DNA of 64,000 nucleotides from a virus. Position numbers and translations under genes: made by a program. The stretch lies in the IMG/VR virus record IMGVR_UViG_3300043540_000321, positions 64,001 to 128,000 of that record; one strand, written 5' to 3'. Shown here piece after piece: positions 25,661 through 63,640 of this stretch. A model generated the notes under the pieces. That model made no database searches. It was not told the DNA's origin and worked only from the letters and a program-made list of their open reading frames with translations. Every line of letters starts with the position of its first letter. Position 1 is the first letter of the stretch.

Positions 25661-25831
25661 AGAGCAGTGCGGGTGGTATGAGAGTAATAGAGTTGTTGGG
25701 TAATAAGCTCAAAGATCCTTGAAACCTTTGCCCCATAAGCGTTTCGGCGATTTTCATACAAAATCCTTGAAATTCAGTCTGCATAGGCATTTCAGCGATT
25801 TCTCTCGTTATTTCCCAACAGGTCTAATCAA

Positions 25832-31612: not shown

Positions 31613-31655
31613 CTTTCAGCGTGCGGGTAGAGGTAGGTTAGGGATGAAATCTCGA

Positions 31656-37708: not shown

Positions 37709-38014
37709 ATGACTATGTATTGTGACCTAGAAATTTATTGGGAAGGGTCTGTAATAGCCCTATTAGACGGAGAAACAGACTTCGTCGAACCCTTTATTAA
37801 AACAGTTCGAGAGATTACGTCGGCTAAGATTGACTGGCACCGCTTCGAAGGAATAGCCCGCGTTCTTTGCCTGGTCGATTCTAAGGAAGAGTGGGACACA
37901 GTCTTCAAAACACTTCTATCCGAATACGATAAGCTGCCTGATAGTCAGAAAGACTTGGTCGACAAAGAGTTAAGGATAATGCGAACACATCCCAATTACC
38001 CAGAAGTCGATTAG
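37709..38014 (+). CDS. small counter-oriented hypothetical protein
   Basis: 101 aa, AAAGGAG Shine-Dalgarno; stop overlaps the stop of the giant gene. Confidence 0.65.
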   Translation: MTMYCDLEIYWEGSVIALLDGETDFVEPFIKTVREITSAKIDWHRFEGIARVLCLVDSKEEWDTVFKTLLSEYDKLPDSQKDLVDKELRIMRTHPNYPEVD

Positions 38015-41000
38015 CTGTAGCTATCTGAGACCGTTCCCATCAGTTCAGCTCTGCGGCTCGCAGTATCCTCAAACTCAGTTGCAATGGGAGTACTCTCGTC
38101 ATTAATGACGACTAGGCCTCCCATAATGTCCTGCTCAAGCTGTGTAGGAATGGCCGAGATATCAAAGTCGATCCGTTGGTTATCGTCCGTGTCAAGGACT
38201 TCATACTCCTGCTGTTGACTAAAAATATCTCTCAACTCCATCTCAGTTCGGTCGACCTGCTCGCCCGCCTCCTCTAGCAAATCCCCGACTCGGTCTGGGA
38301 TATACTCTCCAATCAGCGTTCTCTGCTGAGTAGCCCCTCTAGCGATCGACAAAGACGCAATCGTACTGAGAACTTCTGCCCCAACCGTAAGTAGAGCGGA
38401 CTTCCCGGACGGGGTCTCGTGTGTGCGACCGCTAAGTTTATCGACAAGGGCGTGAGAGACCGCGTTGATTCCGGCGAACATCGTCTCCTGAGTAAACCCT
38501 TGAACCGCACCCAGCATAAACCCTTCTGTTGCCATTGAGTTCTTGATGCGAGAGAGGGAGAATGCCACAGCAGCATCCTGAGAGTGTCCAGATAGCTGAG
38601 CGGTGGCCGTATCTTTCTGACTGCTCAACATCGCTACAGCCTGAAGGGTATCGAACCCGAACTGCCACATCCGATCGTCGAACTTAGCCCCAGCTCCAGC
38701 CGCCGCCAGCAGAAGGGGCGCGGTAAATGCCCCAAACATACTGGCATGTCGTTCGGACTTCTCCATCGCTCGAAGGTTCTCCACCGGAGTCTTTCGATCG
38801 AGAGGCGCGGCTGAAAGTTCAGTCAACTTCTCCTGAACATTTCGAAGAACCTGGTTTGCTTCAGGAGTCGTTCGGACAACCCCCATCTGCTGCACCTTGT
38901 CAAAGTTGATCTCCCCATGCTCATAGATGCCCGCCAACTGTCTTCGCATAGACTCGGCATAGCGTATCGAGTTCTCATCCTGCTCATGTAAACTCCCAAG
39001 GCTCTCTAGCTGGTCGAAGAGACCGTAGACCCCCTGAGAAATAGCTCCGGATGTTTTCTGGAGAACAGCAAGAGGGGTACGACCACCTGGAGACGTGAGC
39101 ATCGCTTCTGTCAAGATGGCCTGCTCCCCACGACTTAACCCAGGGAGTCCAACTCCCATCAGTTGAGCCGCTCGCTGTTGGTTAGTGGGTGACATGGCCG
39201 ATAACTGGTCGTAACCCCTCAGTCCCTGAAACTCAGCCAACTTGTAGTAGGCCATATAGAGGGCATCGGAGGGCATCAGTTGTTGCCCTCGCTGCAACAT
39301 TCGGATGTAAGCGTTGTAGGTATCGATGTTGGCCCCTATCATTCGTTCGGTAATGTCACCTGACCCAAACCGAACTCTGGAGGTCGCTTGGAAACTCTCT
39401 CGCAAGCCTTTAATCTGATCTACGGAGAGAACACCGAACTCTTTATTTCGATGCTGAATTTTAAGGAGAGTGGACTCTTGCACCAAGCGCTCGTTTAGCT
39501 GCCCCAGGTCAGAAGTCGCAGACCGCTGCTGCTCATACTCGGAGACCAGGTCATAATACTGACGGTCTATGCCAGACAGTTTATTGCTGTCAGCCTCCGC
39601 GTGAAAGTCTCTCAACTGGTCAACATAGAATTGCTTAAAGTCAGATGAGAGAGTGGAGCTGATAAAGGCGGCCTGCGATCGCTCGAGTAAACCCTGGATC
39701 TGAAGTGCTGCGAAGTCTGCGACATTAGAAGCTCGACGCGACAACCTTGCTCGACGATACTCTTTCTCCAGCCCAGGCTGTTCCACGAACCGTTTGTGCA
39801 GGTCGGTCTCGTCATCCGACATGGCGAACTCAGCCAACCGAAGCAGGGCACCGAAACCCGTTATCCCCGGATCGTGAACCTGACCTTCTCTTAAACGAGC
39901 GGCTGTTCCTTCCAATCCAGGTGGCGTTGAGATGTCTGGACCCAGTCGAGTCGAGACGACCTTCTTAATTAGGTCTATGCGGTCGCGGTCGGTCTCCGCC
40001 TCTTCGATGAGTTGAGATAGGGGTTTGCCATTGGCATCTGCCTGGCGGAGAATGCCGATCAAACCTTTCTCCGATTTCTCCTTCAAGGCATCTCGAATGA
40101 GCTGCTGCATCGTACCGAGAGTCCCAACGGTACCACTGTAATTCTCCAGCAACATTCCTCGGAGTGAGGACGTGTTATCCATCAATTTCTCTCGAAGTCC
40201 GCGGATCTCCTTCCGACGACGAACGTCTCCTTCTCGCTGCTGCATAGCCAGAAGGTTAGTGTCCAACGTTTGCTTGAATGATTCTGCTCCCGTTGTTTGC
40301 AAGCCAGCCGAGATAGACTGACCCATGATCGCCCTGTCTAACAGGGGAATTAATACGTTGTAGGTCTTTCCAATCAGCTCGGTACCGGCCTGCCCGATAG
40401 TTGCTTGTAACCCCTCCATCTCAAAAGGATTAACAATTGTACCGGCTGCCTTCTTCAGACTTTTATTAATTTGCTCAACGCCCATCGCCACGTTCGCCTG
40501 AAATGCAAAGTAGTCTCTGGACTTACTCAAAAATCCCTCGAGAGTGTCACTTCTAGAATGTGTAGTCAGGGCAGACCACTGACTGCGAATGTCTTCAGGC
40601 AATTGACTGAAGCGGGCGTCTTTCTCCAACCCAGACAACTCTGGCGAGAAGGGAACGCCTCCTTGTAGAGGGTCAAAGAACTTCTGTAGAGCTGCGAGTC
40701 TTTCCTCCGTTTTATGAAGATGTGAGCGGGCATCCTCTATCTGAGGCATTGTGCCGGAAAGCTGCTGAACCATTGCCATCAACGTTCCAGTTGAGACCTT
40801 CTGCTCGTTATTGATGATGAAGTCTGGAAAGGCTACATAGCTGCCAACCCACTTCCGTACGTCTTTCAGAGCGCGAGATGGTGTTCGATCAAGATGAAGA
40901 CTATTTTTATTAACCTCTTCGATACCTTCTGTCAGTTGTTGATAGTGCGTCTCAAGCTCGCCTCTCAGGATTTCAGCCTGTTCGCTAAGAGAGCTCATCT

Positions 41001-44000
41001 TATATAGATGCCCGGCGTCATCGATATCAATATCGAGGTGACGATCAACTTCCGCTTCTATTCGTGTTAGTTGCCGGGTCTTGCGGGCAATATCTTTCTG
41101 AATCCCATGAAGCTCAGCCGCCCGCTTCGTTGTGTTGGTCAGCAAGAATTGGTAGGCGTCCCCATCATAGTCACCAAGCATTGAAAGCAGTCGACCGACC
41201 GCCGGAGCCGCCATCATAGTTCGAGACCGCTCTGTGTTGGGTATCAGCCCACCTCCGGCCTGTCGTACTCTGTCCTGGATAGTCGAAAGGTCTACGGCGT
41301 TATAGACATTCGTTTCGTTTGTCAGTCCGGCTGACCCCGCCGGAGCACCCCCTCTTCGAACGGCCCCTTTCGAAAGGGCCAGCACGTTAGACAGCTCGGA
41401 AGTCCTGCTGTTTAATAAATCCTGTACCCGCGCCTGCGGCAGGTTAGTCATCGCACTGATAGTTGCCGCCTTAAGGTCTAGAACCTGTGTGGCAGATAAC
41501 TTTCTCTCTCGAATGCTCTGCTGGGCACTTTCAAACATCAAATCGAGAGAGTGCCGAGACATGATGCCCGATTTGTCGTCTAGCTCCGGTCCTTTTAACC
41601 CGATCGAGTTAATCAACTTCCGGGTGACTTCCAACATTCGAGCCCCGTGCTCCGGCGATCGCAGGGAACTCTGCTCGATCAGGTTGAACTGAGCGCTGAG
41701 CATCTGCCCAAAGTTCCGATCTTCAACCAAGGCGTGGAACCTCTTGCCCAGTCCCACCTCATCTGGATCCAGGGCAAAAGAACCGACGGCGATGCCAACC
41801 GCACCTTCGAAAGTTTGGCGGTCGCCCATCGCCTTACGAACAAAGTCTGTCCCCAACAAATGGACCAGACCTAAACGACTATTTTCTAAACTATCCTGGA
41901 AGGTCTCTAACTTCCTCTTCTCTGCCTCACTAATGATGGCCCCGGGCTGCATGAGTCGTCCGCGCAATTCCTCTGTCTCAACCAATTGGCGGCGAACGTC
42001 AACTTGGTGGCGCAAACCTTCATCGATATATTGCGGGAAGATGAAGCTGATAGACCGGAGGATGTCCGTTCCCATCAACACACCAAGAGATGGTTTATAG
42101 CGCTGGGGGTCTAAAAGTGAAACGCGATAGCGCCCATCATTTGTAGATTCAAGTGAGAATTTAGGCAGAACAATCTGCTTCGTTGTTCTTACCTCAGATA
42201 GGAGTGCTCTGACCTGTCCATCCCAGGGAACTTTCTCCTGCCTCTCAGATAACTCTGTTTCAAGATGCAGGGCTCCTTCAACGAACTGTTTATAAAGATT
42301 GGTATTTAGGTTTTCTCTAATCGCATTAGCCTGGCGATCGCTAAGCTCCTTCAACCGAGATTGGACCTTACGCCGGATGACTTCATCATCCGAACTCAAG
42401 GGGACACCCACCAGGCGATGACTTCCCTGACTTAATTCGCTAATGACTTTGTAGTGACGCTCAAGCTCTGAGATCGCCCGCCCGCCCTGACCAGACTCAA
42501 CAAAATCTTGGAAGGAGACGGATTCCTCACCGGTAGCTCGTCGGACTCTTCGATCGGCGACAAAACGAGAGTAGGAGTCTGAGACTAACTTTGTGACTAT
42601 CTCCATCGGTGAGAGGCGGCGGTCACCGTCTTTTGCGTACGTCTCACTTAGATGGAGTTGTTTCATTAAGCGCTTCGTCTGCAGCCGGCCCGCCGGGGAG
42701 TCTTGGTCGGAAAAATAAGGTACTCCGTAAGTCCGACTTAAGGTAACGCCCCGTTCTTCAAGGTGGGTCTGCCCTTCCCCGGCAAAGGTCGTAGCTATCT
42801 GCTGCAAATTAATAAATCTTAGGAGGTATCCTCGCTCAGTACCTGGGCGCGTACCAACGCCTCGAATGGCGTCGTTGAGCAGACCCATCTTGTAGCCGAG
42901 AGATGTGTACCCCAGAAGGAATCGTTGAGTATCTAGATGGAATCGACTGGTAAATCCAGGTTCATCTGATGGGAGCGCGAGGCGATACTCCATCGCGGCG
43001 TTTGGGTCTTGCAGTCCGAGAGTCAACGACCCTGACAATACGGCAAATGCTTTATGTACTTGCTGTGCTCCGTCTCCAGCGATCGGCTTGAAGGCTCGCA
43101 GATAGGCTGAACTCAATCCAGTCAGGTATTGATACTCCAGGGCAACTTCGTCTTTGCTGCCCGCAGGAACGAGCGACCTGGAGACAGACATGTCTCGAAG
43201 GTCTTGAATGATGAAATCGTTCTTGATGTGAGCTTGTAAAAGCTCCATCGTCGACTTGACTTTGTGCCGGGGGTCGTCTGGTTTAAGCGACAGGTTTGCG
43301 TTCGCGGCGACCGCGTCCACCATATTGCGATAACCCGGATCGGTGTAGTACCGGTCTATGTCAGATAGATCTTGCTCAAATAAGGTGCCGACACTGGCTC
43401 CTGGAGCCGTAGACCGTCCAAAGATTTGTTTCGATATAAAGGCGGTGTGTGCCAACAGCCCAGCCCCTCGAACGATGAGACTTCCTTCGTTCAGCCCCAC
43501 CCGACCCTGACTGAATCGAATAGAGTGAGCTGGGTCAGAAACAGCCGCCGTAATGAGTTTGCCTGCTTGACGTTTCAGGTGCTTAGAAGCACCTTCATCT
43601 CCCCTCAATGCTTTAATGACAGTCTGCTTCAGGCTAGATAAACTGCCGGTTTGGACATCTTTATCCGCGTTCACACCATCGGCGAGTAGGGTTAGCCCCA
43701 AGGCAACTTTCCCTAAGGTGGATGCCGGACGTCCCTCGTCATCTACTTTGGCAAAGTCGGTGCCCTGAACCATTGCGATCGCATGAGCAACAAACTCTAA
43801 GTTCGACCGTTTCAAATTTCTCTGTAGCTCAGTCTTGACCGTTTCATCCCCCAGAAAAAGAAGGGATAAAGACCGAGCCAGTTCTTGACCCGGAAGACTT
43901 TGTAACGCTTCCCGACTCGATCGCTGACTCAGAAGGTAGATGCCTGACTCATAGTTGAATCCCTTAAAGTGAGAGAACCCAAACAACCCGTAGACCTTTT

Positions 44001-47000
44001 CACCTCGAACAGGCTCTGGCATTAAAGACCCTGGGTCTCGCTTGGAGAAGGTTTGCTGAATGTCTTTGAAGAGAGACTCTTCTATAACGGTGAATGGCCC
44101 CTTAACCAGCCCGGCACCGGCTGGACGCGAGCCACTACCCGCTCTCCACACCGCCATTGCATCAGTAGTAACTGAGATGAGTCCACTCTGAGATACATTA
44201 ACGTGGGGATCTTCGGTAATAACCGAAACACCTTCCTGATGACGTTTGCCGAACGCACCGAATTTTACAGTGAGGGTTTGTCGCCTTCTGCCCCACATCG
44301 TCTCTGCAAATGATGCCGCTTCCTCAAGCTCAATAAGACCTTCGCGACTGAACTGGGCCGTCCTTTGATAATCACCTTTTTCTTGATCATAGTTATAAAG
44401 ACCTTCCTTCAAATAAAGTTTGAGTTCGCCCCGGTCTCGTTTTAAGAGGTAGTGCGCGTAGCGTCCGCCGTCAAACTGCTCCAGCTCTGTCTGGAGTTGG
44501 GTGTCTCGGATGCTTGGATTTTCGGCTGTCCTCTCAGCTAGAAGTTGAGATACCCTTTGATTCTCTGCTTCAATAGGAGCCCCGATGACTACACTGCCCT
44601 TCGCGAGATAACGGCTGAGTATACCAATAGTCTCAGTTTGAGACTTAATCTGCTTACTTGAGACTTTAACCGTGACTCGTTGAGGGTCGCCCAGGTCAAG
44701 CTTGTAGCCTGAGTTAACCCAGCTCGAGTCGCCCACTAATGAGACTCCTCCAATAAGAGCAACTCGCTTCATAGCCCTGGGACCTATAACCCCGTGGTAA
44801 GCGTTGTTTGGGTCCATCTCAGCCTGGCGGAAGTACTCTTGAACCTTCTCGAAATCTCCGTTGTATTGAGACGCTACTCTCTTAACCTCTGCAAACTGCA
44901 TAGCGGGGAGAACTTCACGAAGGCGACCAGACACCAGAGAGTCAGCCTTCAACTCTGCCACGCTATGAGAGAGCGATCGCACCTTATCGGCCATCTCACT
45001 ACTGATATCGATGGCTGGGCGGCTGCCTCCCACGTTCTTCAAACGTTGTGGGATCTGTTCGGGTTTCGGGAAGGGGAGCAAGAACATCGTGTCTTGCTCC
45101 TCGGTGATTGCCTGGGCCGATCGCTTACTGACTAATAAAGTCTGGAGTTGCTGAACCTCCTTTGACCACTGCTCTCGACTAACAGAAGCTAGACCGGCAG
45201 TGCCCTTCAAGAACTTTTCCATGTCATGGGCCGTCGCCGCTCCGATGCTGATGTCAGAGTCCACCACCGTTAGCTGTCTTAGCCCGCCATACGCTGTAAT
45301 CTTCAGCGGTTTTGCTTGAGTCACCGCACCTACCGCTCGGTAGAACTCCCCTGCTTCTCCCAGACGAGTACCAGACTTCACCTCAGCCGGGTCTAAGACA
45401 CCGGCTGCAATAACTCGGTCATAGGTCGTGTCTAATGGGAATTTACTCTCTTGAGAGTAAACTGGCAGACGAGCCACTGCTTGCAGCCCCGAGTATCCAA
45501 GCTCGTGAGCAGCCAGGAAGGGAGCCGCCAGGTCAGAGACAATTCGATAGGTCTGAGTGGACTGGGCCGCGAAGAACTTTCTTCGGTTCTCATCGGAACG
45601 AAGGAGAAGTTTTAACTTCAGGTCTTGGAAGAGATTCTGCTCATCGAGAAGAAGGACATCCGTCAATCGATGCTGAGCGAACAAATCTCCCTGGTGTTGA
45701 AGGAGCTCATCGAAAACGACCCGGAGATAATTCTGTCGCTTGGAAAAGTCCGCCTCGGACAGCGTGCGCGTGTAATCTTCTATTGGAGAATCGACTCCTG
45801 CTGCCAACACCCGCTGCGCCTGGTACACAGTAGATGAAGGGGAGATTCCTAATTCTTTAGACGCGGACTTAATACCAGACATCATCGTCCGCAGGTTCGC
45901 TCGTCCCTGTCCGGACTCGACAGCCTGGGCTACTTCTGGAGCAACCATCGCCAAAGATTCCGCGATGATGTCGCGTGCCGCCGCATGTAAATCTCCCGGA
46001 CGCTCCTGAACCATTCGGTTGAACAGAGAGTTCACCAGAGAGTATCTGGACTGATAGCTCAGCTCTCGAGACACCGTAGCTATGAAGGACACGGCAGTCT
46101 CCATTCCAGAAAGTTGGGTAGACTTTCCAGGTTGAATCTTACGTCCGAACAGAGAGATAGGAGAGGACGATTTGTTCGCAAAGACAGACCCAGGAATGAG
46201 CTTGTTCTGATCGACCAGGATTACGTTTCCGTGGCGATCGACTGTCAAGTTGATTATGAGAGAGCCGGATATGGAGTCAACACCTCGAACACGAACCTTC
46301 AGTCCAGTCTGTGAAGCTGGGGAGTCTGGGCCGGTCTTAAGAGTGTATCGCCCCTCAACCTCGATGACTGAGCCTCCAATTTCACGATTCAGTTTCTCCA
46401 GAGCTTGTCGGAGCTGCTCCACCTGAGAGACGTCCGCGTTACGCTCAGCCAAGAATCCCGTCTTGTATAACGTCTGCCCGCGGTCCATCTTTTTGAGCAG
46501 GTCGCCCGCAGATAGCACGTTATAGTGCTGCTCCAGTTTTGACTTCTGCTTCAACTCCTGCAGATAGCCGTCCGGGTCCAGCCGTTTCTGAACTGGGCGG
46601 TGCTCGTCGCGATAGCGGCCCGCACCAACTGCGACTACCGTGTCCAGGTTGATGGGAGATTCTGGGTCGAAATCTGTGAACGTTCGCTTCGCTGCATTCA
46701 GAGCGTTATTAAAATATTCATCCTGGAAGCGATTGAGCTGCGAGACTGGAATCAATGAATCGGCGGAGAAGTTTGCAGACCCCACACTTAAGAACATCAA
46801 CTTCTGGTCAGTCCCTCCAAAAATTGAGATGGATTTGTCATGTTGATAGCCCGTCGTCGCCGTCCGGATCGAACCCGTGTCTATGAGCAGTCGAATAAAG
46901 GTCTCATCAACTCCAAGTGCCTGCGTGCTCCCTCCAAACTTTGCATCTCGAAGTGAGTCGAAGAACCCAGACAGCCGAGAGTTATCGGTAACGATCGTCA

Positions 47001-54307: not shown

Positions 54308-54318
54308 AAGGAAATATC

Positions 54319-54981: not shown

Positions 54982-55067
54982 GTTTGGAGCAAAGTCAGTC
55001 CTCGCTCCTAATGGGGAGATTCACGAGTTGGTCTCCCCTTCCTAATCCTCTCTTCAATCCGACCTTT

Positions 55068-55514
55068 ATGAGCACCCAATTAGACGATACAGAAGACTGC
55101 CCTGGTTCTATGAATCAGCTCGACAGCCTGAGCCTATTCCACAAGATGCTGGCCAACTCCTCAGTACAGTGCGGCTGTTGCGATCGCATTCTATCAATCT
55201 GGTACATCGGACCGGGGTGTCGTTTCATTCCCAGGCATAAACCACCTAAGAAGATAGACCTCCCGGTCAATGTCCGTGAACTCAGCTACTGCATCAGTCA
55301 AAGTCTCCTCAACACAGATTATTACCTGATGGGGGTGCCTATAGAGTTGAAGGGTGAAATCCTATTCATAGTCATCTCACTTCTTGACCCAGACTTGCAA
55401 GAGCTTAAGTATCGAAAGGCGTATACCCGGTTAGAACTCTCTCATTCCTGCCTTCCACCCAACGAACTTATAGTTCAAGATCTTAAGGAAGCACTAAACA
55501 AACCCATCCTATAA
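55068..55514 (+). CDS. hypothetical protein with Cys cluster
   Basis: Start ATG 55068 (MSTQLDD); QCGCCDR motif. Confidence 0.5.
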   Translation: MSTQLDDTEDCPGSMNQLDSLSLFHKMLANSSVQCGCCDRILSIWYIGPGCRFIPRHKPPKKIDLPVNVRELSYCISQSLLNTDYYLMGVPIELKGEILFIVISLLDPDLQELKYRKAYTRLELSHSCLPPNELIVQDLKEALNKPIL

Positions 55515-55550
55515 AAATATAAAGTTTGGAGTCGAAAGACGATCCTCAAC

Positions 55551-55588
55551 AGGGAGCTTCTTCTGCGCGTGAACAGAGGCTCCCTTTT
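55551..55588 (+). terminator. probable intrinsic terminator
   Basis: AGGGAGC...GCTCCCT imperfect stem followed by TTT at the end of the plus-strand block. Confidence 0.5.
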
Positions 55589-55672
55589 CTCTTCCTATTA
55601 TCCTCTTGCTAGAAAAAATCCATTGGAAAAAATGACGCGGATTTGAGAGAGGGGTTGATTTGATCGATCCGA

Positions 55673-55723
55673 CCACCCCCGCCACTTATTGCAGATTAAT
55701 TTGCAACAAGTAGCGGGAGGTGG
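55673..55723. repeat. long imperfect inverted repeat in the largest intergenic gap
   Basis: CCACC-CCCGC-CACTT-ATTGCA-GATTAATT-TGCAAC-AAGTA-GCGGG-A-GGTGG. Confidence 0.6.
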
Positions 55724-55794
55724 GTTCGCTTTCGCGACGTGTGCGTTGAAGCAAAGGGTCGATTAATTACTACCACTACGATTGGAGAGTCAAT

Positions 55795-56355
55795 ATGTTA
55801 CTCAGTGATAAGCCTTTTGTTATAGACAGAGGCAATGTACAGGCTATGAAAGCACATAGCCAGATAGGTAAACAGCGAGCCGCTCAAGGTCTCGAGGATT
55901 GGAATACACCTGAGGAGCTGAGAGGCAAAGAGGTTGAGCAATGTGTAGCTCGATTGTTAAATACCTGCTTGCAGGTAGACCAGGTAAAGCGAGCTAATAG
56001 GGGGTCTGTCTTAGATGACGAGGTCAAGGTTGACCTCCTAGTCTATGTAGGGAATGAGGTACAGGGGTTCCAAGTAAAGACTTCTCAAGCGGCAGCAGAG
56101 AGGTTTCATATGGAACACCCTGAAGTTCCATGTATCTGGTATGCAGGAACTAATAGACTCCAGCTCTGTGTAGCCATCGCTCAACTGCTTCACACAAAGA
56201 TGAAGCCAGTAGTTAAGAACGCTCTAATGAAGTTCGACCTACTGAAGTCTAAGAAAGTTAGCAATCCATCCGCACTGAGAAACCTCTTCAGTAAAGACGA
56301 GCAAACAGTCTGTGTTGTACTCGGACTACTTACTGAAAGAGCGTTTTCTAGCTAA
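55795..56355 (+). CDS. PD-(D/E)XK superfamily nuclease-like protein
   Basis: GKEVEQCV...DDEVKVDLLVYVGNEVQGFQVKTS gives an E...D...QxK pattern. Confidence 0.65.
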   Translation: MLLSDKPFVIDRGNVQAMKAHSQIGKQRAAQGLEDWNTPEELRGKEVEQCVARLLNTCLQVDQVKRANRGSVLDDEVKVDLLVYVGNEVQGFQVKTSQAAAERFHMEHPEVPCIWYAGTNRLQLCVAIAQLLHTKMKPVVKNALMKFDLLKSKKVSNPSALRNLFSKDEQTVCVVLGLLTERAFSS

Positions 56356-56361
56356 CCCATA

Positions 56362-56436
56362 TAGGGGAAGACCAATAGTCTTCCCCTACTCCGTCGCTGG
56401 GTATTGGTAGCCCAGCTTGAAAAGTTACTTCGAAAC
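56362..56436 (+). promoter_or_regulatory. repeated hairpin module, copy 1
   Basis: 11-bp perfect IR (56362-56388), then GTCGCTGGGTATTGGTAGCCCAGCTTGAAAAGTTACTTCGAAAC, then GGAGG and ATG. Confidence 0.7.
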
Positions 56437-56446
56437 GGAGGATTTT

Positions 56447-56656
56447 ATGGACAGCAAACTACTACAACTAATCGCCCTTTCTCAAACTACTGAAGTTGAT
56501 ACGACTCAAACGGTCTATCAACTCAAAGTTAAAGGAATTCCCTGTGGACTCTTTAACGAGATAGGCGATGCAGAAAACGCAGCCGAAGACGCTGGGTTCG
56601 ATTGTCGCGACTACCAAATAGTCGTCTTCTCAGAACCGGACGTTAAAGCCTGCTAA
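56447..56656 (+). CDS. small early hypothetical protein
   Basis: GGAGG Shine-Dalgarno before ATG 56447; 69 aa. Confidence 0.65.
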   Translation: MDSKLLQLIALSQTTEVDTTQTVYQLKVKGIPCGLFNEIGDAENAAEDAGFDCRDYQIVVFSEPDVKAC

Positions 56657-56661
56657 GACTT

Positions 56662-56740
56662 AGTCCTGCGATCGAACGATCGCAGGACTTCTCCGTCGCT
56701 GGGTCTGGTAGCCCAGCTATGACAAGTTACCAAACGAAAC
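56662..56740 (+). promoter_or_regulatory. repeated hairpin module, copy 2
   Basis: 13-bp perfect IR (56662-56689), then GTCGCTGGGTCTGGTAGCCCAGCTATGACAAGTTACCAAACGAAAC, then GGAGG and ATG. Confidence 0.7.
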
Positions 56741-56751
56741 GGAGGTCTATT

Positions 56752-57060
56752 ATGGCTACCACAACAACAGTTGCAACCGTAAATGAACTTAACTATCTGT
56801 CTGCTCGCCTGCGTGCAGAAGGGTTTGTCGTTAAAGTTCATAAGCTTGAGCAGGGTTGGGAGCTGACACTTTCCGAAGGCGGAAGGCCAAGCTCATTTCA
56901 ACCCAAACAAACGGAAACCGGTGAGGAGATTATCTTCTTTAACCTATCCGAGTTTAAGCGAGGTGAGGCAATGGCTGCCGATCTTCGCGAGCAAGGAATT
57001 GCTTGCAAGTTCGCTAAAGCCAAGAGTGGCAGATGTTGGTATCTCAAAAGACTTGCATAG
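56752..57060 (+). CDS. small early hypothetical protein
   Basis: GGAGG Shine-Dalgarno before ATG 56752; 102 aa with two similar L.A.LR..G repeats. Confidence 0.65.
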   Translation: MATTTTVATVNELNYLSARLRAEGFVVKVHKLEQGWELTLSEGGRPSSFQPKQTETGEEIIFFNLSEFKRGEAMAADLREQGIACKFAKAKSGRCWYLKRLA

Positions 57061-57073
57061 TCTACAACAAAAC

Positions 57074-57112
57074 AAACAAAAGAGGAGCTGAAAACAGCTC
57101 CTCTTTTGTTTT
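57074..57112. terminator. bidirectional intrinsic terminator
   Basis: 17-bp perfect IR AAACAAAAGAGGAGCTG-AAAA-CAGCTCCTCTTTTGTTT. Confidence 0.75.
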
Positions 57113-57124
57113 AAGGAGGTCATT

Positions 57125-57283
57125 ATGTTGGAAGCAATCTTGATGGATTTAGCAATTGAATTAGTTGTTGATTGCGTGTTAGGTGCTGTTATTGCAGATG
57201 CTGAATTAGGAATTCTTGAACCTTTCGTCAGTGAAGGGGTAAAGGAGCTCGCTAAGAAGATCTACAAGAATCGCAAAGGCTGA
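57125..57283 (+). CDS. small hypothetical protein (52 aa)
   Basis: AAGGAGGT Shine-Dalgarno; MLEAILMDLAIELVVDCVLG...KIYKNRKG; below the track cutoff. Confidence 0.65.
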   Translation: MLEAILMDLAIELVVDCVLGAVIADAELGILEPFVSEGVKELAKKIYKNRKG

Positions 57284-57289
57284 ATTTAT

Positions 57290-57367
57290 AGGGCAGAGAA
57301 AGTAATTTCTCTGCCCTGTTTTGGTCGCTGGGTATTAGTAGCCCAGCCTGACGAGTTACTACGAAAC
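57290..57367 (+). promoter_or_regulatory. repeated hairpin module, copy 3
   Basis: 12-bp perfect IR (57290-57317), then GTCGCTGGGTATTAGTAGCCCAGCCTGACGAGTTACTACGAAAC. Confidence 0.7.
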
Positions 57368-57390
57368 CAAAACAAAGCGAGGACAAGATT

Positions 57391-58050
57391 ATGTTGACAA
57401 CTACAAATCTCCAACAACTGAATACTCTGACCGTTATCGTTCTTGAAGCTCAGAACACGGCTGACAATCTACGCCGGAGAGCTATTCGATCGATGACCAA
57501 CTACGACAATTGGACCGCGATTGCATTTGCAGCAGACTGGGCAGAACTAGATAGGAAAGCATACGCTGCCCTGTTCAATAGAAAGAATTACGACTTGCTG
57601 TGCAGCGCGATCGCCCTGGTCGTAACCATCTTCTGGACATGCTACGTGTCTGCGTGTGAAGCGATTGAATACCTGGCTGAAACGACTTCTCCGGTTGCGC
57701 CCAGTGTCTACTACTTCAGCCCACTCTATGTGATGGACCTGGATGACTATGAGGAACTTACTTGCGACCTATGGGCACCACCTGAACTGGATGAAAAGCT
57801 GGTCTGTGATGTTTGGGAGCTCGTTGAAGTCGAACCACTACCGACGGCAAATCCAGATGTAGAGGTTGCGATCACTGTCCAAACAAGTCTTTATCTCCTG
57901 CCGGCTGCTCCTGTTGAAGTTAATGATGTTGAGGATGAAAAGACGACAGTAGCGACTAAGCAGAAGAGGGCAAGCTCGAAGGCAAAAAAGTCCAGCCCAA
58001 AGGGAAAGTCGAGAACTTCCAAATCGAAGTCGACGAAACAGTGTGCATGA
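57391..58050 (+). CDS. early hypothetical protein with basic K/S-rich C-terminal tail
   Basis: 219 aa; acidic middle, tail KQKRASSKAKKSSPKGKSRTSKSKSTK. Confidence 0.65.
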   Translation: MLTTTNLQQLNTLTVIVLEAQNTADNLRRRAIRSMTNYDNWTAIAFAADWAELDRKAYAALFNRKNYDLLCSAIALVVTIFWTCYVSACEAIEYLAETTSPVAPSVYYFSPLYVMDLDDYEELTCDLWAPPELDEKLVCDVWELVEVEPLPTANPDVEVAITVQTSLYLLPAAPVEVNDVEDEKTTVATKQKRASSKAKKSSPKGKSRTSKSKSTKQCA

Positions 58051-58089
58051 AGAAGTTTCACAGTTTTGTAACCAATAAGGAGGCCTATC

Positions 58090-59256
58090 ATGGCTACCAA
58101 CAATTTTGACCAATCAACCCTGTCGATCGTTGATGAACTCTTCAAGTCCTTGTTCAAGGAAGAAGATACAACGATTGAAGTCGCTGGCCGCAAATTTAGG
58201 CCAGCGGTCCTAAAACGGAATACGCTCAACCTTAGCGACGTTCCCAGGACAGTCCGGGAAACATTCTCTTTCCACAAAGACTCGATTGTTCAGCCCAGGG
58301 AACGGGGTCGGCACTCTATCATCGTCACGCTCCTCTCTATGAGGTTCTCTGACGATGGTCAGATGCTGGTTGCAGCTCCTTCTATCCAAGCCGCCACCTA
58401 TAGCGGAACATCTAAGATGTTGCCTGTAGGTGACTGGAACCAGAAGGCGGTACTCACAGGGCGGGACCTTTTCATTCAAGCGGATTTTATGAGCTCGGAT
58501 GATGGTCTCACTATTCTCAACCCTGTTGTTCTGAAACGTCCGTACCCAGCCGGTAAAGATGATGGAAACGTCTCCGTCATGCTGTGCGGTTCGAACAAGA
58601 CAGATAGCAACTGGAAGGAAAAGCACAACCATGCTCGAGACGAATTTAGGAAGGCAGCACTCAATGTTGCCCAGAGGTTAGGCGTCCCTTCCGGAGAACA
58701 GTTCATCATTTGCCTTGTTGGATTTCCGGTTAGGTCGGGAGAAAACAACGGTGAGACTGATTCGTTCTGGGGAGCCATCTTAGAAGGCGGTTACCTTCTG
58801 GGTGGTCGGCGCATCAACCGTGTTAGTAAGGCTCCAGACCCGAACGGCAAGCTAGGTGGTTTGAGAATCTCCTCAGATTTCCAAGTCACCTCCTGTAAAA
58901 CCGTGGCTCAAATGCTCGAAGAACAGTTAGCTGCTCAGTTAGCTACTCGATCTGTTCAGGTCGATCCTAAGTCTGAACCTGAACCTGAGCCAGTGCTTGA
59001 ACAACCTGAACCTGAACCTGAACCTGAACCTGAACCTGAACCTGAACCTGAACCCGTGGTTGAGCCTTCTCAACCACGGCGAGAAAGTCTCTTAGAGAAG
59101 TTGGGTCCGATAACCAATGACTCTGATGAATTTCAACTTCTCGAAGAGTCCTCGGACGATGAGGAAGAAGTGTTCATGGGCAGGGTCGGAAGCATCGCTG
59201 AATTGCTGAAAACCAATATCAAACCGGGCAGAGAGGATAATCCCTTCTGCCCTTAA
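58090..59256 (+). CDS. hypothetical protein with (PE)n linker and acidic tail; SSB-like candidate
   Basis: 388 aa, AAGGAGG Shine-Dalgarno; beta-rich core and acidic C-terminus, upstream of the RNAP and helicase genes. Confidence 0.6.
   Translation: MATNNFDQSTLSIVDELFKSLFKEEDTTIEVAGRKFRPAVLKRNTLNLSDVPRTVRETFSFHKDSIVQPRERGRHSIIVTLLSMRFSDDGQMLVAAPSIQAATYSGTSKMLPVGDWNQKAVLTGRDLFIQADFMSSDDGLTILNPVVLKRPYPAGKDDGNVSVMLCGSNKTDSNWKEKHNHARDEFRKAALNVAQRLGVPSGEQFIICLVGFPVRSGENNGETDSFWGAILEGGYLLGGRRINRVSKAPDPNGKLGGLRISSDFQVTSCKTVAQMLEEQLAAQLATRSVQVDPKSEPEPEPVLEQPEPEPEPEPEPEPEPEPVVEPSQPRRESLLEKLGPITNDSDEFQLLEESSDDEEEVFMGRVGSIAELLKTNIKPGREDNPFCP
59005..59052 (+). repeat. (CCTGAA)x8 coding tandem repeat
   Basis: Eight exact hexamers encoding PEPEPEPE... 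Confidence 0.95.
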
Positions 59257-59265
59257 GGAGGTCAT

Positions 59266-62200
59266 ATGGATACGAAAGTTCTGTGCAAGAACTGGAACGT
59301 ACAAGCTGACCCGTTCTACGCAATGTACAAGAGAACGGGGCATAGCCTTGACGATGTCCAGAGTTTAACACCCGCTGAAGCCGTGCGGGTTGTGTTCGGG
59401 GATGCGGTCGGTGACGCGATCGCTCCTGACGGCGATATCGAAGGCTCACTTCAAAACGTAACTCTGTTTGCTACATGGTGCTACATGTACCTGCGGCAGA
59501 AAGTTTCTACCGTCAACTGTCCCGTGAATCTTGGAGAAGAGTTCTACCTGGAACTCACTTCAGCTCCATTCATGGGTGCTGACTTGCTGTGTCAGATTGG
59601 TCAGCAACTTACAGATGACGCTGTTATTAAGGAAGCTCGCAAGGTGATGGAAACTTTGATCGGAGCAGGAGATAAATACCGTGAAAACCTGAGTCGCTTG
59701 GCTCAAGCATACGGATTGATTCCCTCTGCTATCCGGCAGGGTTTGCTATCCGCCTGTATCTCTAAACTGACAGACCGCAAGGTCCTAACCTTTGCTGCCT
59801 GCCAGAACGTTATCGAAGAGGTTGTTGGTGTAGCTCCCAGCAATCTGGTGTACGTCAACCCTAATTGGATTCGCTTCGGCGACTTCCTGGCTACTGCTCA
59901 GGACGTTGCTGTTGTGCTGAATTGGCTATCCCGCGCATTTAGCGATGTCTTTGAAGTCAAATCCTGCGATGACGGGTTTAACTTCTGGGTTGAAGGTACT
60001 CAGTTTCACTGCACGTCTAAGGACGGCGTGTTCCACATTGAACGCAATCGGCATATCAATGGGATGCTTTTAGTTAATAGCTCGACTGGTCGGCACCCCA
60101 CCGAGCCAGTTGACCCCGAAAACCTGTCGCTCGTAAACAGCTACGGTACGGTCATCTACGCTCTGTTGTATGGAGCGCCTGGTTATGTTAACAAAGGCAA
60201 AGGTTGGGACAGCTTCGTCAACAAAGTCCTGGTCAAAGGAGACGAATATCCTTTGACATCTGAGGATGAAGTTGGACCCGCAGATGGCGATCGTAAGTTT
60301 CACGAACGCTATGTAACGGTAACTCGACCTCAGCCCGTCGACGTTCCGTTTGCGCTCATTCGCTTCACGGACGGCTGGTTTCTCAGTACTCAGTCTGTCT
60401 CTATGAAGACTGGTTATGCCACCGAGTCAGAAAACAGCGTACGCCTACCGCAAAATAGCTCTATTGACAAGGCTGCTCTCTGGGCATTCAACCTAGTTCG
60501 GATGCCAAGCGGAGCTCTTATTGATGGACGGCGGAGCTGTATTCAACTTCGACACACTCAACAACCAGCCAACTTTGCCAAGGCTATGATGTTGAATCTG
60601 GCCGGCACCGACGATATTCTGCGAGCTGAAGGTTATGCCCGCTCCATCGTTAAGGTTCCAGACGGAAAAGATACCTGGGAACACCTGGGTGAATATCTGA
60701 TCGTTGGCTTGTCTTCGAAGTTAGCCAAGCTGATTAAACGGACAGCATCCGATGCTGCCGTTGTCGCAAAGTTAGAAGATGGGCAGTCTCGTGGGTTCAA
60801 GCGGTTCGGACAGACTAATGAGTCAACTAACAATTGGCTCGTTGAATCTGTTGTCTCTGCACACGCAATCTGGCCGGCTGGTATGGCCTGCTATTGGGGT
60901 GATGAGCCTCAACTGTTGGTTGACCATACGGAGTCCATTCAGTTGCCTTTCAAGGGTGATGTAGATGAGACTACAGTGAGTGTGCCTTATACCGAGTACA
61001 TGGGTGAAGTCTATCTGGAAGATGGATGGTTCAAAGTTACGATGACCACCCCAATTCCAATTGACAAAGGTGGATTGGCTGGAGAAGTCCAGGTGTGCTG
61101 CAACGGAATCGAATATCCGTTTGCTATCACATCCAAGACTCCGGACGCTCAGCTCGTAGGTGTCGAATGGCAAGAACGCCGTGGCTACGGTGACCTCAAG
61201 ACTTTGTTCGTCAAAGTAAGGACTATCACCGTGGAATCCGAAATCAAAGCTCGGAATGGTGTGAAGGCTATGCTGACCCGCTACGACCGTCGGTGCTTGT
61301 CCCTCAATAATGAGGATATCGCTGCTCGTGCGATTTTCTTCAAGGACACAAACAAGTGGCTAGACCTGGCGACTCAAATCTGCGATATCGCTGCTTGCAC
61401 AGCTATCCAGAATAAAGATCCGCAGGGCCTAGCTCTTATTCACTCTGCCAACGCCGCCGCTGGTGTATCTCATAGCGACTATCTGGAATGGTCTCCCGTG
61501 CTCGCTATGATTGGCGTCTATCAACCTCTACTCAACTGGTTCGAGTCCAAGTTTGGTCGCTCGATCTGGTTCAAGTGGGAAGATTCCACTTGTGACTGGA
61601 CGACAGTGCTGCGTCTCATGTACACGAAGCACGACAGTCCGAATGAAGCCGAGCGAGCTGAACCAGTTGCTGGTTGGAGCTATGTCGACCATGACAAGCT
61701 TGACTTTCTACCCAGCACAGCATCTGATGTGCTGGCTATTGCAGACGGTGACTTCGAGGATGAGCATACGAATGTTGTAGTCATCTACCGCGTCGGCGGT
61801 ATTGAATACTTCGTTCAACGTGCTTATTCCTTCGCTGGAACCTCGGCTACCGGACCCGTTTGGCAACCAGTTAAGGCTGAGTTGTCTAGTGTTCGTGCAG
61901 GCGTGACCCAGTCTCCTTTAATGTCTGGAGTTATCCGGGCCGTTGAAGGTAAAGATTTGGACTATGCCACACGACTGGCTGCGGATGGTCTGCAACACGT
62001 TCAACGTGCCTCTACTGTTACTCGGATGGCTCGAGGTCTGGGTGGCGTGCAGAATGTTGTACTCGGAACGCCTGACGCAATGTCCGTTCTGTGTACAGAA
62101 GAATTGCAAGAGCTGGTGACCAACCCGCTACTTCAAGGTCAGCTCGTTAGAAAGTTGGCTGAGCAGTTCCCAGACACATTCTTCATCGTGCCTGGTGCTT

Positions 62201-63594
62201 ACGGGACATTCAGCCTGCATCTACCTACCGTGGTGGAGCAGGACGGTTCCGATAACCTGTGTTCAAGTGTGACAATGGCGGGCCTGACCGCTCAGCTACT
62301 GTCACTAGCTATCCTGGGCGCAGGTGCTGACGACAAGGTTTTCTGTGCGATCGCTCGTTCTCTGAACGGTGCGATTCGGAAACTTGCCGAAAGTGAAACA
62401 CTGGCGAAAGCGGCCGCCTACGGTCGCGTAGGCGTCAGCGCAAAATGTAAAGCGCTGCCGGGTATTGGTGTGGGTGAAGTTTGGATTAGGTTTAGCATCC
62501 GACACAACTCTGTTTATCAAACCATGAGAAGAGTTATGGGTAAGGACCTTGACGGCCGTAAGGTCCTTATGAGCAGAGCTCCGATGACAAACCCATCTGT
62601 CCTAAAGGTCAGAGTTATTAAACCCATTCATCCGATGGGAGACTACGTTGAAGCCGACTCCATTTATCTGTCCCCTCTAGGGCAGATGTTAAATGGTGGG
62701 GACTTCGATGGAGACCCTATCTATCTGACGGATGCTAATGACTCAAACCTTCCTGTAACAACGTTGAAGACTATCATCGACAACGTTATTGCTAGAACAG
62801 GCAGTGACCAACTCAACCCAGGTGCATCCTACTGGGGCGACCACTTCGAAATTCTTTCTGCTGATGCTGTAGCTGAGAAGCGCACTATTGGCAAGAAGAA
62901 CTTGTCCATGCTCAATGACGATGGCCGGAAGGCTCTGCCTACCATGTTAAAAGGCTCTTCAGTAATGTTCGAGTCCGCCATCAATTGGGCTCACAGGATA
63001 TTCCTGACTTCAGACCTATATCTATCTCTGATATGGGCGCTGCAGGAAGACCTGATGGTCAAGTACCCGGGGTGGAAACCCAATTCATTCACTCAAAACC
63101 GCTCTCTAGTTCTCTTGTTGGCTGAGCTATACGAGATCCCATTAGGGGGACTAGACTGGAATGCTCATGACGCTATCATGGGCGGGTTGGTCCCGATTAT
63201 CCGCGACCTTAAAACTCAGTTCGACGGCGAACAGGTTAATAAGTTCGTGGCTGACTTAGAGGCGGCTGGAATCAAACGTGGTGGAAGAGATATCCATCGC
63301 GCAGCAGTCCAAGCGGCTGAATGTCGCAAGCTGAGCAGTGTCAAAGCGAAAGTACCACTGCCTGCTGTTATTCACGGAACCACTCCAGAAGGTTTTCTCT
63401 GTGCCGTGTCTGAGATGTCTTCGCTCATTAGCAAAGGCGACTTTACTATGACGAGCAAAGTTCACGCAACGATGGCATGTGAGATTGCTGATTGGCTTAC
63501 CAAGCATGACGCAGATGGTAAACTGACCGCGAAAAGCACTGTTCTGATGCAGATCAGACAGTATCTTGACCTGATGGTTGAGGGTGTCAAGTAA
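59266..63594 (+). CDS. single-subunit two-barrel (DPBB) DNA-dependent RNA polymerase, YonO/crAss/P23-45 gp64-like class
   Basis: EIKARNGVKAML (K661/K667, like beta GDK..GRHGNKG); YGRVGVSAKCKALPGIGVGEVWI (beta' region C-like); VLMSRAPM (R1104); IYLSPLGQMLNGGDFDGDPIYL (D1146/1148/1150). Confidence 0.88.
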   Translation: MDTKVLCKNWNVQADPFYAMYKRTGHSLDDVQSLTPAEAVRVVFGDAVGDAIAPDGDIEGSLQNVTLFATWCYMYLRQKVSTVNCPVNLGEEFYLELTSAPFMGADLLCQIGQQLTDDAVIKEARKVMETLIGAGDKYRENLSRLAQAYGLIPSAIRQGLLSACISKLTDRKVLTFAACQNVIEEVVGVAPSNLVYVNPNWIRFGDFLATAQDVAVVLNWLSRAFSDVFEVKSCDDGFNFWVEGTQFHCTSKDGVFHIERNRHINGMLLVNSSTGRHPTEPVDPENLSLVNSYGTVIYALLYGAPGYVNKGKGWDSFVNKVLVKGDEYPLTSEDEVGPADGDRKFHERYVTVTRPQPVDVPFALIRFTDGWFLSTQSVSMKTGYATESENSVRLPQNSSIDKAALWAFNLVRMPSGALIDGRRSCIQLRHTQQPANFAKAMMLNLAGTDDILRAEGYARSIVKVPDGKDTWEHLGEYLIVGLSSKLAKLIKRTASDAAVVAKLEDGQSRGFKRFGQTNESTNNWLVESVVSAHAIWPAGMACYWGDEPQLLVDHTESIQLPFKGDVDETTVSVPYTEYMGEVYLEDGWFKVTMTTPIPIDKGGLAGEVQVCCNGIEYPFAITSKTPDAQLVGVEWQERRGYGDLKTLFVKVRTITVESEIKARNGVKAMLTRYDRRCLSLNNEDIAARAIFFKDTNKWLDLATQICDIAACTAIQNKDPQGLALIHSANAAAGVSHSDYLEWSPVLAMIGVYQPLLNWFESKFGRSIWFKWEDSTCDWTTVLRLMYTKHDSPNEAERAEPVAGWSYVDHDKLDFLPSTASDVLAIADGDFEDEHTNVVVIYRVGGIEYFVQRAYSFAGTSATGPVWQPVKAELSSVRAGVTQSPLMSGVIRAVEGKDLDYATRLAADGLQHVQRASTVTRMARGLGGVQNVVLGTPDAMSVLCTEELQELVTNPLLQGQLVRKLAEQFPDTFFIVPGAYGTFSLHLPTVVEQDGSDNLCSSVTMAGLTAQLLSLAILGAGADDKVFCAIARSLNGAIRKLAESETLAKAAAYGRVGVSAKCKALPGIGVGEVWIRFSIRHNSVYQTMRRVMGKDLDGRKVLMSRAPMTNPSVLKVRVIKPIHPMGDYVEADSIYLSPLGQMLNGGDFDGDPIYLTDANDSNLPVTTLKTIIDNVIARTGSDQLNPGASYWGDHFEILSADAVAEKRTIGKKNLSMLNDDGRKALPTMLKGSSVMFESAINWAHRIFLTSDLYLSLIWALQEDLMVKYPGWKPNSFTQNRSLVLLLAELYEIPLGGLDWNAHDAIMGGLVPIIRDLKTQFDGEQVNKFVADLEAAGIKRGGRDIHRAAVQAAECRKLSSVKAKVPLPAVIHGTTPEGFLCAVSEMSSLISKGDFTMTSKVHATMACEIADWLTKHDADGKLTAKSTVLMQIRQYLDLMVEGVK

Positions 63595-63597
63595 ACG

Positions 63598-63621
63598 AGT
63601 GGGGTGGCCATCCACCCCACT
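63598..63621 (+). terminator. hairpin after the RNAP gene
   Basis: AGTGGGGTGG-CCAT-CCACCCCACT 10-bp stem; weak U-tract. Confidence 0.5.
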
Positions 63622-63640
63622 TAATTCAGAGGACTGAATT

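Follow-up and report, generated by a model that had tools for sequence, protein, structure and literature searches.

A candidate single-chain RNA polymerase, predicted hammerhead cassettes and a giant candidate virion protein in a cyanobacterial myovirus

To our knowledge, described cyanophages either use the host RNA polymerase, as the T4-like ones do, or carry T7-type enzymes. The virion RNA polymerase of phage N4 is T7-like, not two-barrel. N4 promoters are short hairpins with stems of 5-7 bp and 3-nt loops; they have neither a hammerhead core nor a covarying helix around them. YonO of SPbeta is reported to have a late-gene role. Here we analyze a 64,000-nt stretch of viral DNA (the window), bases 64001-128000 of the single 195,211-bp record IMGVR_UViG_3300043540_000321. 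It encodes a 1442-residue candidate two-barrel RNA polymerase and a giant protein of 3395 residues, and carries a thrice-repeated module with the architecture of a hammerhead ribozyme. Coordinates are in window numbering (position 1 is base 64001 of the record) unless marked 'genome'.

Phage P23-45 encodes gp96, a virion RNA polymerase fused to the tape measure protein, and gp64, a non-virion RNA polymerase (Chaban et al., 2024; PMC10770324). Its own polymerases were assigned only the pre-early, early and some middle genes, and precedents exist for polymerases hidden in giant virion proteins (PMC10770324). Hammerheads with a 2-bp stem II, loop pseudoknots and active triple tandem copies in phage-like polycistronic RNAs have been described (Perreault et al., 2011; PMC3088659). 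What phage-associated self-cleaving ribozymes do has yet to be settled (PMC6765202). Phages with dual polymerases (P23-45, phiKZ, AR9) have been described before, as have tandem phage hammerheads. What is new here is their combination, the divergence of the protein families and the swap of ribozyme class between relatives.

A sequence-only reading of the window had proposed that an injected polymerase, the giant protein, initiates at hairpin promoters and transcribes the gene of a second polymerase, which then reads the late genes. Our analysis leaves one polymerase well supported and the second unproven, and replaces the promoter inference with ribozyme punctuation. The explanation that we favor, and consider reasonably probable as a whole, combines a polymerase of 1442 residues, a giant virion or ejected protein, and an early transcript punctuated by hammerheads.

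The 1442-residue protein is very probably a single-chain two-barrel (cell-type) RNA polymerase belonging to a large unnamed phage family. This reading follows from invariant motifs and from several independent, individually weak family matches. A profile of the C-terminal 883 residues matched at least 112 clusters (50% identity) among 1.84 billion proteins. Across 115 aligned cores, K661, R663, K667, D694, K697, R852, E872, K1060, R1104 and P1106 are near-invariant, as are G1145, D1146, D1148, G1149, D1150, Y1189, D1192 and a YE..LGG block. K661 and K667 are present in 87/87 members, and R663 in 86/87. Their resemblance to the GRHGNKG-type motif suggests, by analogy, that these residues may be placed in a beta-like barrel. 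In the candidate catalytic segment, R1104 is conserved in 97/97 members and P1106 in 96/96, and the five loop residues (G1145, D1146, D1148, G1149 and D1150) are each found in 89-95 of 93-97. The DFDGD sequence at residue 1146 is the only DxDGD in the protein, and only three open reading frames (ORFs) in the 195-kb genome carry such a motif.

Family matches converge on this segment. The Pfam model PF05183 (RdRP) matches the genome only here, on R-x-P...GDxDGD (12.8 bits, E 0.0016 per genome), with the segment aligned to model positions 361-443. Among 14 control genomes, the model matched only in that of B. subtilis; the SPbeta prophage of this species carries yonO. Among the 30 nearest ESM-Atlas language-model clusters, 24 are phage clusters carrying PF05183 (score 0.95). 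The top profile match of the family in the PDB is the beta' subunit of the phage AR9 RNA polymerase (E 0.5), again on R-x-P...GDxDGD ('RNP...GDYDGD' in AR9). The protein resembles the PF05183/YonO enzymes in being single-chain, with a beta-like signature before a beta'-like one. It differs from them in its subthreshold score, in the lack of profile similarity to YonO and in its much larger size, with a conserved 560-residue N-terminal region, and in being split or helicase-fused in relatives.

The organization of the family was also examined. Many members are 2000-4100 residues long, and some appear to be fused to helicase domains; a PHROG search with 40 members returned helicase families only. 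The six close homologues share one gene order: small genes, a gene of ~380-510 residues, the 1442-residue homologue, and then a PIF1/RecD-like helicase. The polymerase-helicase gene pair is syntenic in all relatives and fused in some. In three relatives the polymerase gene is split into products of 1108-1114 and 361-373 residues. The split lies directly before the LDGRKV..SRAPM block, between the two conserved barrel-motif blocks. It would yield one beta-like and one beta'-like gene, and counts in favor of the polymerase reading. The two genes of the split orthologues (L003:10001-14478, L004:10001-14496 and L005) are 47 nt apart.

Several results limit the polymerase assignment. The PF05183 scores of 12-13 bits lie below the 23.8-bit cut-off and correspond to E values of 0.08-0.13 per protein. 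Against full libraries, both the RdRP and the PDB matches fall below the curated or significant thresholds. An AlphaFold model built on eight sequences has a predicted local distance difference test score (pLDDT) of 60.7, with the catalytic part below 50. Direct searches with the protein (Pfam, PHROGs, and phmmer against PDB sequences) returned nothing significant, and Rpb1_2 and Rpb2_6 had no match in six frames of the genome. Foldseek against the PDB and a wide VIA-align search with the core gave generic helical matches only, a result that is silent on whether the barrels are present. Neither this protein nor the giant had a tblastn match in 50,697 phage records.

The module lies upstream of this gene. 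It consists of GTCGCTGGGT-loop-AGCCCAGC followed by AGTTAC and CGAAAC, and occurs exactly three times in the whole genome (56393, 56695 and 57324). All copies are intergenic and on the plus strand. Every copy has a strong hairpin, variable in sequence, on its 5' side and a gene of 79, 113 or 219 residues on its 3' side. The third copy stands upstream of the 219-residue gene, then a 388-residue gene and then the polymerase gene; scans turned up no strong hairpin between these three genes. A perfect 17-bp inverted repeat with a 4-nt loop (57074-57111) is found 3' of the 113-residue gene. It scores as a terminator on both strands and precedes a 52-residue ORF that has no ribozyme cassette.

We propose that the three modules are ribozymes of type III hammerhead architecture, predicted from sequence and folding to self-cleave. 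Folding revealed an outer helix that encloses the conserved hairpin; copies 1 and 2 form it with CTCCGT/ACGGAG, and copy 3 with TTTTGGT/ACCAAAA. The elements are arranged as stem III, a GUC cleavage site, stem I (GCUGGG/CCCAGC), CUGACGA, stem II (GU-loop-AC), GAAAC and the closing strand of stem III. Copy 3 has the exact consensus core (GUC, CUGACGA and GAAAC), and so does a fourth copy found in a phage fragment (L026:6388-6443; also in L027; both IMG/VR fragments). The consensus positions compared were C3-U4-G5-A6-N7-G8-A9, G12-A13-A14, A15.1-U16.1 and H17 at the cleavage site. These four sequences are the basis of the covariation analysis. Stem III has seven pairs, four of them with compensatory changes; stem I has six invariant pairs and stem II has two pairs. 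Helix cells are paired in 96.7% of cases versus 35-50% when the partners are slid, and the covariation score was reached by 0/500 shuffles. A 4-bp pseudoknot between loops I and II (GGUA/UACC) pairs in 93.8% of cells and includes one compensatory pair. A loose descriptor recovers copies 2 and 3 and misses copy 1, which has a U-U mismatch in stem II; it finds no further site in the 195-kb genome, versus 0.25 matches per shuffled genome.

Copies 1 and 2 depart from the consensus core. Positions 3 and 8 of hammerheads form the C3-G8 pair. In both copies these positions change jointly from C/G to U/A, and copy 2 also has one inserted A. Given these departures, copies 1 and 2 may be inactive, which would count against a cleaving role. 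The Rfam results point the same way. Hammerhead_3 (RF00008) matches copy 3 at 57324-57367 with 18.0 bits against a cut-off of 48.5 (E 0.11 in a 121-nt search), and it did not list copies 1 and 2 among type III hammerheads. The score is probably lowered by the short stem II. Compared to the tandem hammerheads described before (PMC3088659), the cassettes share the type III layout, the 2-bp stem II, the pseudoknot between loops I and II, the occurrence of three copies within 1 kb between small genes and the phage early-region context. They differ from RF00008 members in falling below the gathering threshold and in the U3/A8 and inserted-A variants, and from both references in the strong hairpin preceding each copy and in the other ribozyme classes that related phages carry at the same positions.

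Ribozymes are also predicted in relatives. In L001 (6658-8414), four twister-P1 matches (E 4.9e-10, 1.9e-9, 8.5e-5 and 1.7e-4) lie at intergenic sites syntenic to the cassettes, together with two weak HDV-like matches at such sites. L006 has one twister, at 10153-10213. Related phages thus have different ribozyme classes, as predicted from sequence, at syntenic sites. In another relative, G003, Rfam matched no ribozyme in the 7 kb before the polymerase gene, a point against the ribozyme reading. The L026 copy is 93% identical to copy 3 over 44 nt and has the outer helix CCTGT/ACAGG. That fragment encodes an SU10-like portal and has no protein similarity to this genome, which suggests horizontal spread of the cassette. 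In prokaryote genomes, the module had 16 matches versus ~17 expected by chance, none with a downstream core.

The hammerhead architecture and the syntenic twisters argue that the modules are RNA-processing cassettes, not N4-like promoters. As they would process a longer RNA from within, its promoter has to be sought 5' of the modules. The cassettes would belong to a polycistronic early RNA whose start precedes 56389. Cleavage at the three predicted positions would free the mRNAs of the small genes and another one for the 219-residue, 388-residue and polymerase genes. Each released piece would begin with a 5'-OH, and each fragment on the upstream side would have a hairpin at its 3' end.

A distinct motif before the late structural genes had been noted. 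This motif, ACCCGCA, was found 7-16 nt before the ATG of the capsid gene, a 359-residue tail-fibre-like gene (25668), a 261-residue gene (20351 and 20360) and one gene outside the window. This gives five start-proximal sites versus ~0.35 expected, an estimate from word counts. The motif is not enriched genome-wide (28 copies versus ~24 expected) and is absent upstream of the capsid gene of G003 (63% identity). ACCCGCA takes the position of a Shine-Dalgarno sequence. Because of this ribosome-binding position and the lack of conservation in the relative, it is poor evidence for a late promoter, and it may be a translation or leader element. No sigma factor was detected in the window, in agreement with the sequence-only reading, or in the whole genome: Sigma70_r2 had no match in six frames, and of two weak Sigma70_r4 matches one lies in an HU-like protein and the other in a generic helix-turn-helix protein. 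The T7-type RNA_pol model also had no match in six frames of the genome; its control matched nowhere either, so this absence is weak. A scan of 55000-64000 for sigma-70-type promoters found fewer sites than in shuffles, and no plus-strand site before the early small genes or the polymerase operon.

For the 3395-residue protein, the most likely identity is that of a multi-domain protein, present in the virion or ejected, whose N terminus carries a PLD-like phosphodiesterase module. A virion or ejected role is likely because of the position of the gene in the structural block. It is the first gene of the minus-strand block, upstream of the portal, protease, capsid and sheath genes on the same strand. 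It diverges from a plus-strand block over a 288-bp gap, which also holds an 88-residue minus-strand ORF. About 30 homologues of 3055 to >5100 residues were collected, and conservation extends over the whole length. The collection's gene caller gives a protein of 3217 residues, 178 shorter than the ORF. The longer form is favored because its N-terminal residues align to homologues from about residue 20-62. Both PLD half-sites (H234-x-K236...GSQN255 and H453-x-K455...GS474AN476) are invariant; no canonical Asp can be made out. One homologue is matched by Pfam PLDc_2 (E 1.2e-4), and a match to the PLD-type RE_NgoFVII domain has E 0.21. Another giant in this genome, of 4700 residues (window 1-1614 and upstream), has two HxK...N sites at residues 97 and 278 and no DxDGD; BLASTP found no similarity between it and the 3395-residue protein.

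The giant also contains a loop reminiscent of polymerases. DYDGD at residue 2343 is its single DxDGD, and LGD[YF]DGD is invariant in homologues of only 15-20% identity. In a 23-sequence alignment of the core (residues 1960-2860), L382, G383, D384, D386, G387 and D388 are invariant columns. R2282 and P2286 (R-G-A-P), 57-61 residues before the loop, are invariant in the homologues, and R2702, K2706 and K2708 downstream of it are invariant or nearly so. The candidate second-barrel blocks are GDRQTFEGAVGIAVGS at 2125-2140 and the R2702, K2706 and K2708 residues. The hexapeptide GDYDGD is the same as in the AR9 beta' subunit, and ~2e-4 hexapeptides of this type are expected by chance in a protein of this length, an estimate from residue frequencies. 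These features would fit an injected polymerase. Since the hypothesis rests on one invariant loop, this identity is unproven, and we put it at a little under an even chance.

A number of results leave the giant without a further tie to polymerases. The core model, built from the same 23 sequences, has a pLDDT of 65.4 and is mostly helical, with the conserved motif segments below 50. Wide VIA-align with the core found only coiled-coil hairpins, at model residues 387-496, just after the loop, and this outcome, too, is silent on the presence of barrels. Profile-profile comparison (hhalign) of the two protein families aligned only 11 columns around GDxDGD, with a probability of 5.7%. When forced, the alignment puts R-G-A-P on S-R-A-P and is not significant. 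With hhalign, nothing was found between each family and the single YonO sequence. The two families, and each of them and YonO, share nothing detectable beyond the loop. The giant had no polymerase match in Pfam, PHROGs, PDB sequences or the phage collection, where so divergent a family could escape detection. A language-model search with its core was uninformative (score 0.75). The proposal of two unrelated single-chain double-psi beta-barrel polymerases therefore stands in part. Both ORFs are present, each with one DxDGD, and they look unrelated in sequence; the models and generic fold matches do not establish the barrel fold of either protein.

The arrangement recalls P23-45 in several respects. 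A giant protein of the virion module has a DxDGD recognizable by motif only, and a separate early-region gene encodes the candidate single-chain two-barrel polymerase. The two candidate polymerase proteins cannot be aligned by sequence, there as here. The logic would also be the same, with an injected enzyme transcribing the gene of a second enzyme, here predicted from genes alone. In contrast to P23-45, the giant gene precedes the portal gene of a myovirus and is not a siphovirus tape measure protein, and its product carries a PLD-like module. Searches of PDB sequences found no similarity of either protein to gp96 or gp64. As in N4, three repeated elements with hairpins stand ahead of early genes, and a giant protein is a candidate for a virion enzyme. 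The elements here differ in fitting a ribozyme, with a 6-bp stem and an 8-9-nt loop enclosed by a second covarying helix and a ribozyme core.

Two other readings of the modules were weighed. In the programme proposed from sequence, the injected 3395-residue polymerase starts at the three hairpin modules as in N4, and the second polymerase reads late genes from ACCCGCA. Such a programme would account for the occurrence of only three copies, all before early-looking small genes and the polymerase operon, for the terminator-like hairpin that each of them follows, for the invariant GDYDGD loop of the giant and for the lack of predicted sigma-70-like plus-strand promoters before these genes. However, the module contains all hammerhead core elements, and the two arms of its outer helix, ~40 nt from each other, carry compensatory changes, in line with an RNA fold rather than a promoter. 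Its recurrence in a fragment without protein similarity, the twisters in its place in a syntenic relative, and the closeness of ACCCGCA to start codons without conservation in a relative also count against this programme. The number and positions of the modules were borne out; their promoter role is contradicted, and we regard the programme as extremely improbable. Alternatively, the modules could be non-cleaving regulators in 5' untranslated regions (translational operators or thermosensors) that hide the ribosome-binding site; in copies 1 and 2 the outer helix has ACGGAG as its 3' arm. GGAG falls within this helix in both copies and in that of L026, and the deviating cores of copies 1 and 2 and the low Rfam score are in keeping with such a role. 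Against it stand the perfect core in copy 3 and L026, the position of the copy 3 outer helix clear of the ribosome-binding site, and the co-variation of positions 3 and 8 in copies 1 and 2. In addition, the syntenic twisters point to cleavage as the shared function. Regulation without cleavage is very unlikely in our view, and the reading as processing cassettes is retained.

The role of the giant is more evenly balanced. There may be a single phage polymerase. The giant would then serve in ejection or in the virion structure, combining a PLD-like enzyme domain with coiled coils and with hydrophobic segments at the C terminus, and its DYDGD would bind metal for another purpose. The host RNA polymerase would read the early operon, and the 1442-residue polymerase the middle or late genes. 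This is nearly an even prospect. Family, profile, language-model and fold searches gave no link between the giant and polymerases, the model of its core is mostly helical, and the 4700-residue giant of the same genome also has HxK motifs without DxDGD. On the other hand, GD[YF]DGD matches the AR9 beta' hexapeptide at a very low chance expectation. The loop is invariant among highly divergent homologues with an upstream invariant R-x-x-x-P at compatible spacing, and giant virion proteins have been found to hide polymerases (PMC10770324). The most far-reaching reading is a cyanophage lineage of ~190-220 kb with a host-independent two-polymerase cascade. In it, an ejected PLD-bearing protein of ~3400 residues would be an unrecognizably divergent two-barrel polymerase that transcribes a ribozyme-punctuated early operon encoding a second one, with the ribozyme class (hammerhead, twister or HDV-like) swapped among relatives. 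In its entirety this is rather unlikely. We infer catalysis by either protein and by the ribozymes, virion packaging, the pairing of polymerases with genes and, likewise, a self-contained polymerase cascade.

If the explanation that we favor is true, a cell-type single-chain polymerase shared by a group of large cyanophages and by more than 100 metagenomic protein clusters would be a further transcription strategy among viruses that infect bloom-forming cyanobacteria. The 1442-residue family would be a large unnamed polymerase family to characterize. If the giant is also a polymerase, dual polymerases of the P23-45 style would extend to myoviruses, and PLD chemistry would be tied to polymerase delivery. 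Three hammerheads behind protective hairpins before small genes and the polymerase operon, with twisters in a relative, would make 'operon punctuation' testable in one system. The coordinates of all features are listed in Table 1.

Table 1. Positions of the main features in the window.
Feature	Position	Strand	Evidence or remark
Large terminase	2237-4051	-	PHROG match
Baseplate wedge	10713-11816	-	PHROG match
Sheath	20384-23185	-	PHROG match
Major capsid protein	30215-31612	-	PHROG match
ACCCGCA, 9 nt upstream of major capsid ATG	31622-31628	-	Further copies at 25668, 20351 and 20360
Prohead protease	31656-33512	-	PHROG match
Portal	34866-36431	-	PHROG match
3395-residue giant, candidate ejected protein	38011-48198	-	ORF; heads structural gene block
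D2343-Y-D-G-D2347 loop of giant	41158-41172	-	LGD[YF]DGD in every homologue spanning the region
N-terminal PLD-like module of giant, two HKD half-sites (H234-x-K236...N255; H453-x-K455...S474-x-N476)	46759-47598	-	Invariant columns, weak Pfam matches
Stable hairpin directly 5' of cassette 1	56364-56386	+	Hairpin plus cassette -22.1 kcal/mol, z -6.9
Hammerhead type III cassette 1 (predicted), U3/A8 core variant UUGAAAA, predicted cleavage after C56395	56389-56440	+	Fold z -3.6, helices, covariation
Stable hairpin directly 5' of cassette 2	56663-56688	+	z -5.8
Hammerhead type III cassette 2 (predicted), core UAUGACAA (U3/A8 plus one inserted A), predicted cleavage after C56697	56690-56745	+	Fold, covariation, descriptor
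Stable hairpin directly 5' of cassette 3	57291-57316	+	z -7.8
Hammerhead type III cassette 3 (predicted), canonical core CUGACGA...GAAAC, predicted cleavage after C57326	57317-57374	+	Rfam, descriptor, foreign copy
1442-residue candidate non-virion single-chain two-barrel RNA polymerase	59266-63594	+	ORF, family motifs, weak PF05183, language-model neighbours
K661-A-R663-N-G-V-K667, putative beta-like barrel signature	61246-61266	+	Conserved in 86-87/87 aligned family members
R1104-A-P1106 to GD1146-F-D1148-G-D1150, putative beta'-like catalytic barrel segment	62575-62715	+	Near-invariant in family alignment
Terminator-like hairpin 3' of polymerase gene	63598-63621	.	Hairpins at same place in relatives
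713-residue PIF1/RecD-like helicase gene (start)	63641-64000	+	3' of polymerase gene

The window covers the middle of a complete cyanobacterial myovirus genome of 195 kb. CheckV gives a completeness of 100%, and no terminal repeat was found in the 195,211-bp record. PHROG matches in the window define a minus-strand block of myovirus structural genes. The capsid protein shares 30-34% identity with capsids of the Microcystis Ma-LMM01 group and of the Microcoleus phage My-WqHQDG. The genome contains 78 copies of GCGATCGC, an abundant sequence that we take to be the cyanobacterial HIP1 palindrome, and a syntenic relative encodes NblA. Because of these three lines of evidence a cyanobacterial host is well supported by the sequence, and the earlier description of a cyanophage is confirmed as a myovirus of cyanophage type. 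The relative G003 is also a 195-kb record and is labelled a provirus in IMG/VR.

Between the giant gene and the ribozyme region lies a plus-strand block (48809-49117, 52727-53464, 53540-54307 and 54319-54981) with genes for a PAAR spike-tip protein, two M15 D-Ala-D-Ala peptidase-like proteins, an M50 metalloprotease and a deoxynucleoside monophosphate kinase-like protein. With such products, this block is not simply 'early'. The 388-residue gene just 5' of the polymerase gene contains a GAACCT tandem repeat (58963-59075, plus strand), which encodes a run of Glu-Pro dipeptides.

Three other repeated or conserved elements were considered as promoters and rejected. The octamer TTTATTAA has 88 copies genome-wide versus ~6 expected, mostly within genes, and window sites include 253, 1023, 3927, 9013 and 40462. 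It is scattered through coding sequence in both orientations, which speaks against a promoter. All 16 copies of ATGTTAGT, in both orientations, form one iteron cluster in a single 430-bp intergenic region (genome 3690-4120), ~60 kb before the window start; this cluster is probably a replication origin or partition site. The CAGTCCCA element (genome 129870-129985, window coordinate 65870 onward) lies just past the window end, 3' of the helicase gene, and is followed by two direct repeats of ~35 nt. As it occupies only one conserved intergenic site, it was dismissed as a repeated promoter. The word CAGTCCCAT(A/C) and the repeat layout of this element are kept in L001, L003, L004 and L006; possible roles of the element are those of an origin, of a structured RNA and of a regulatory site.

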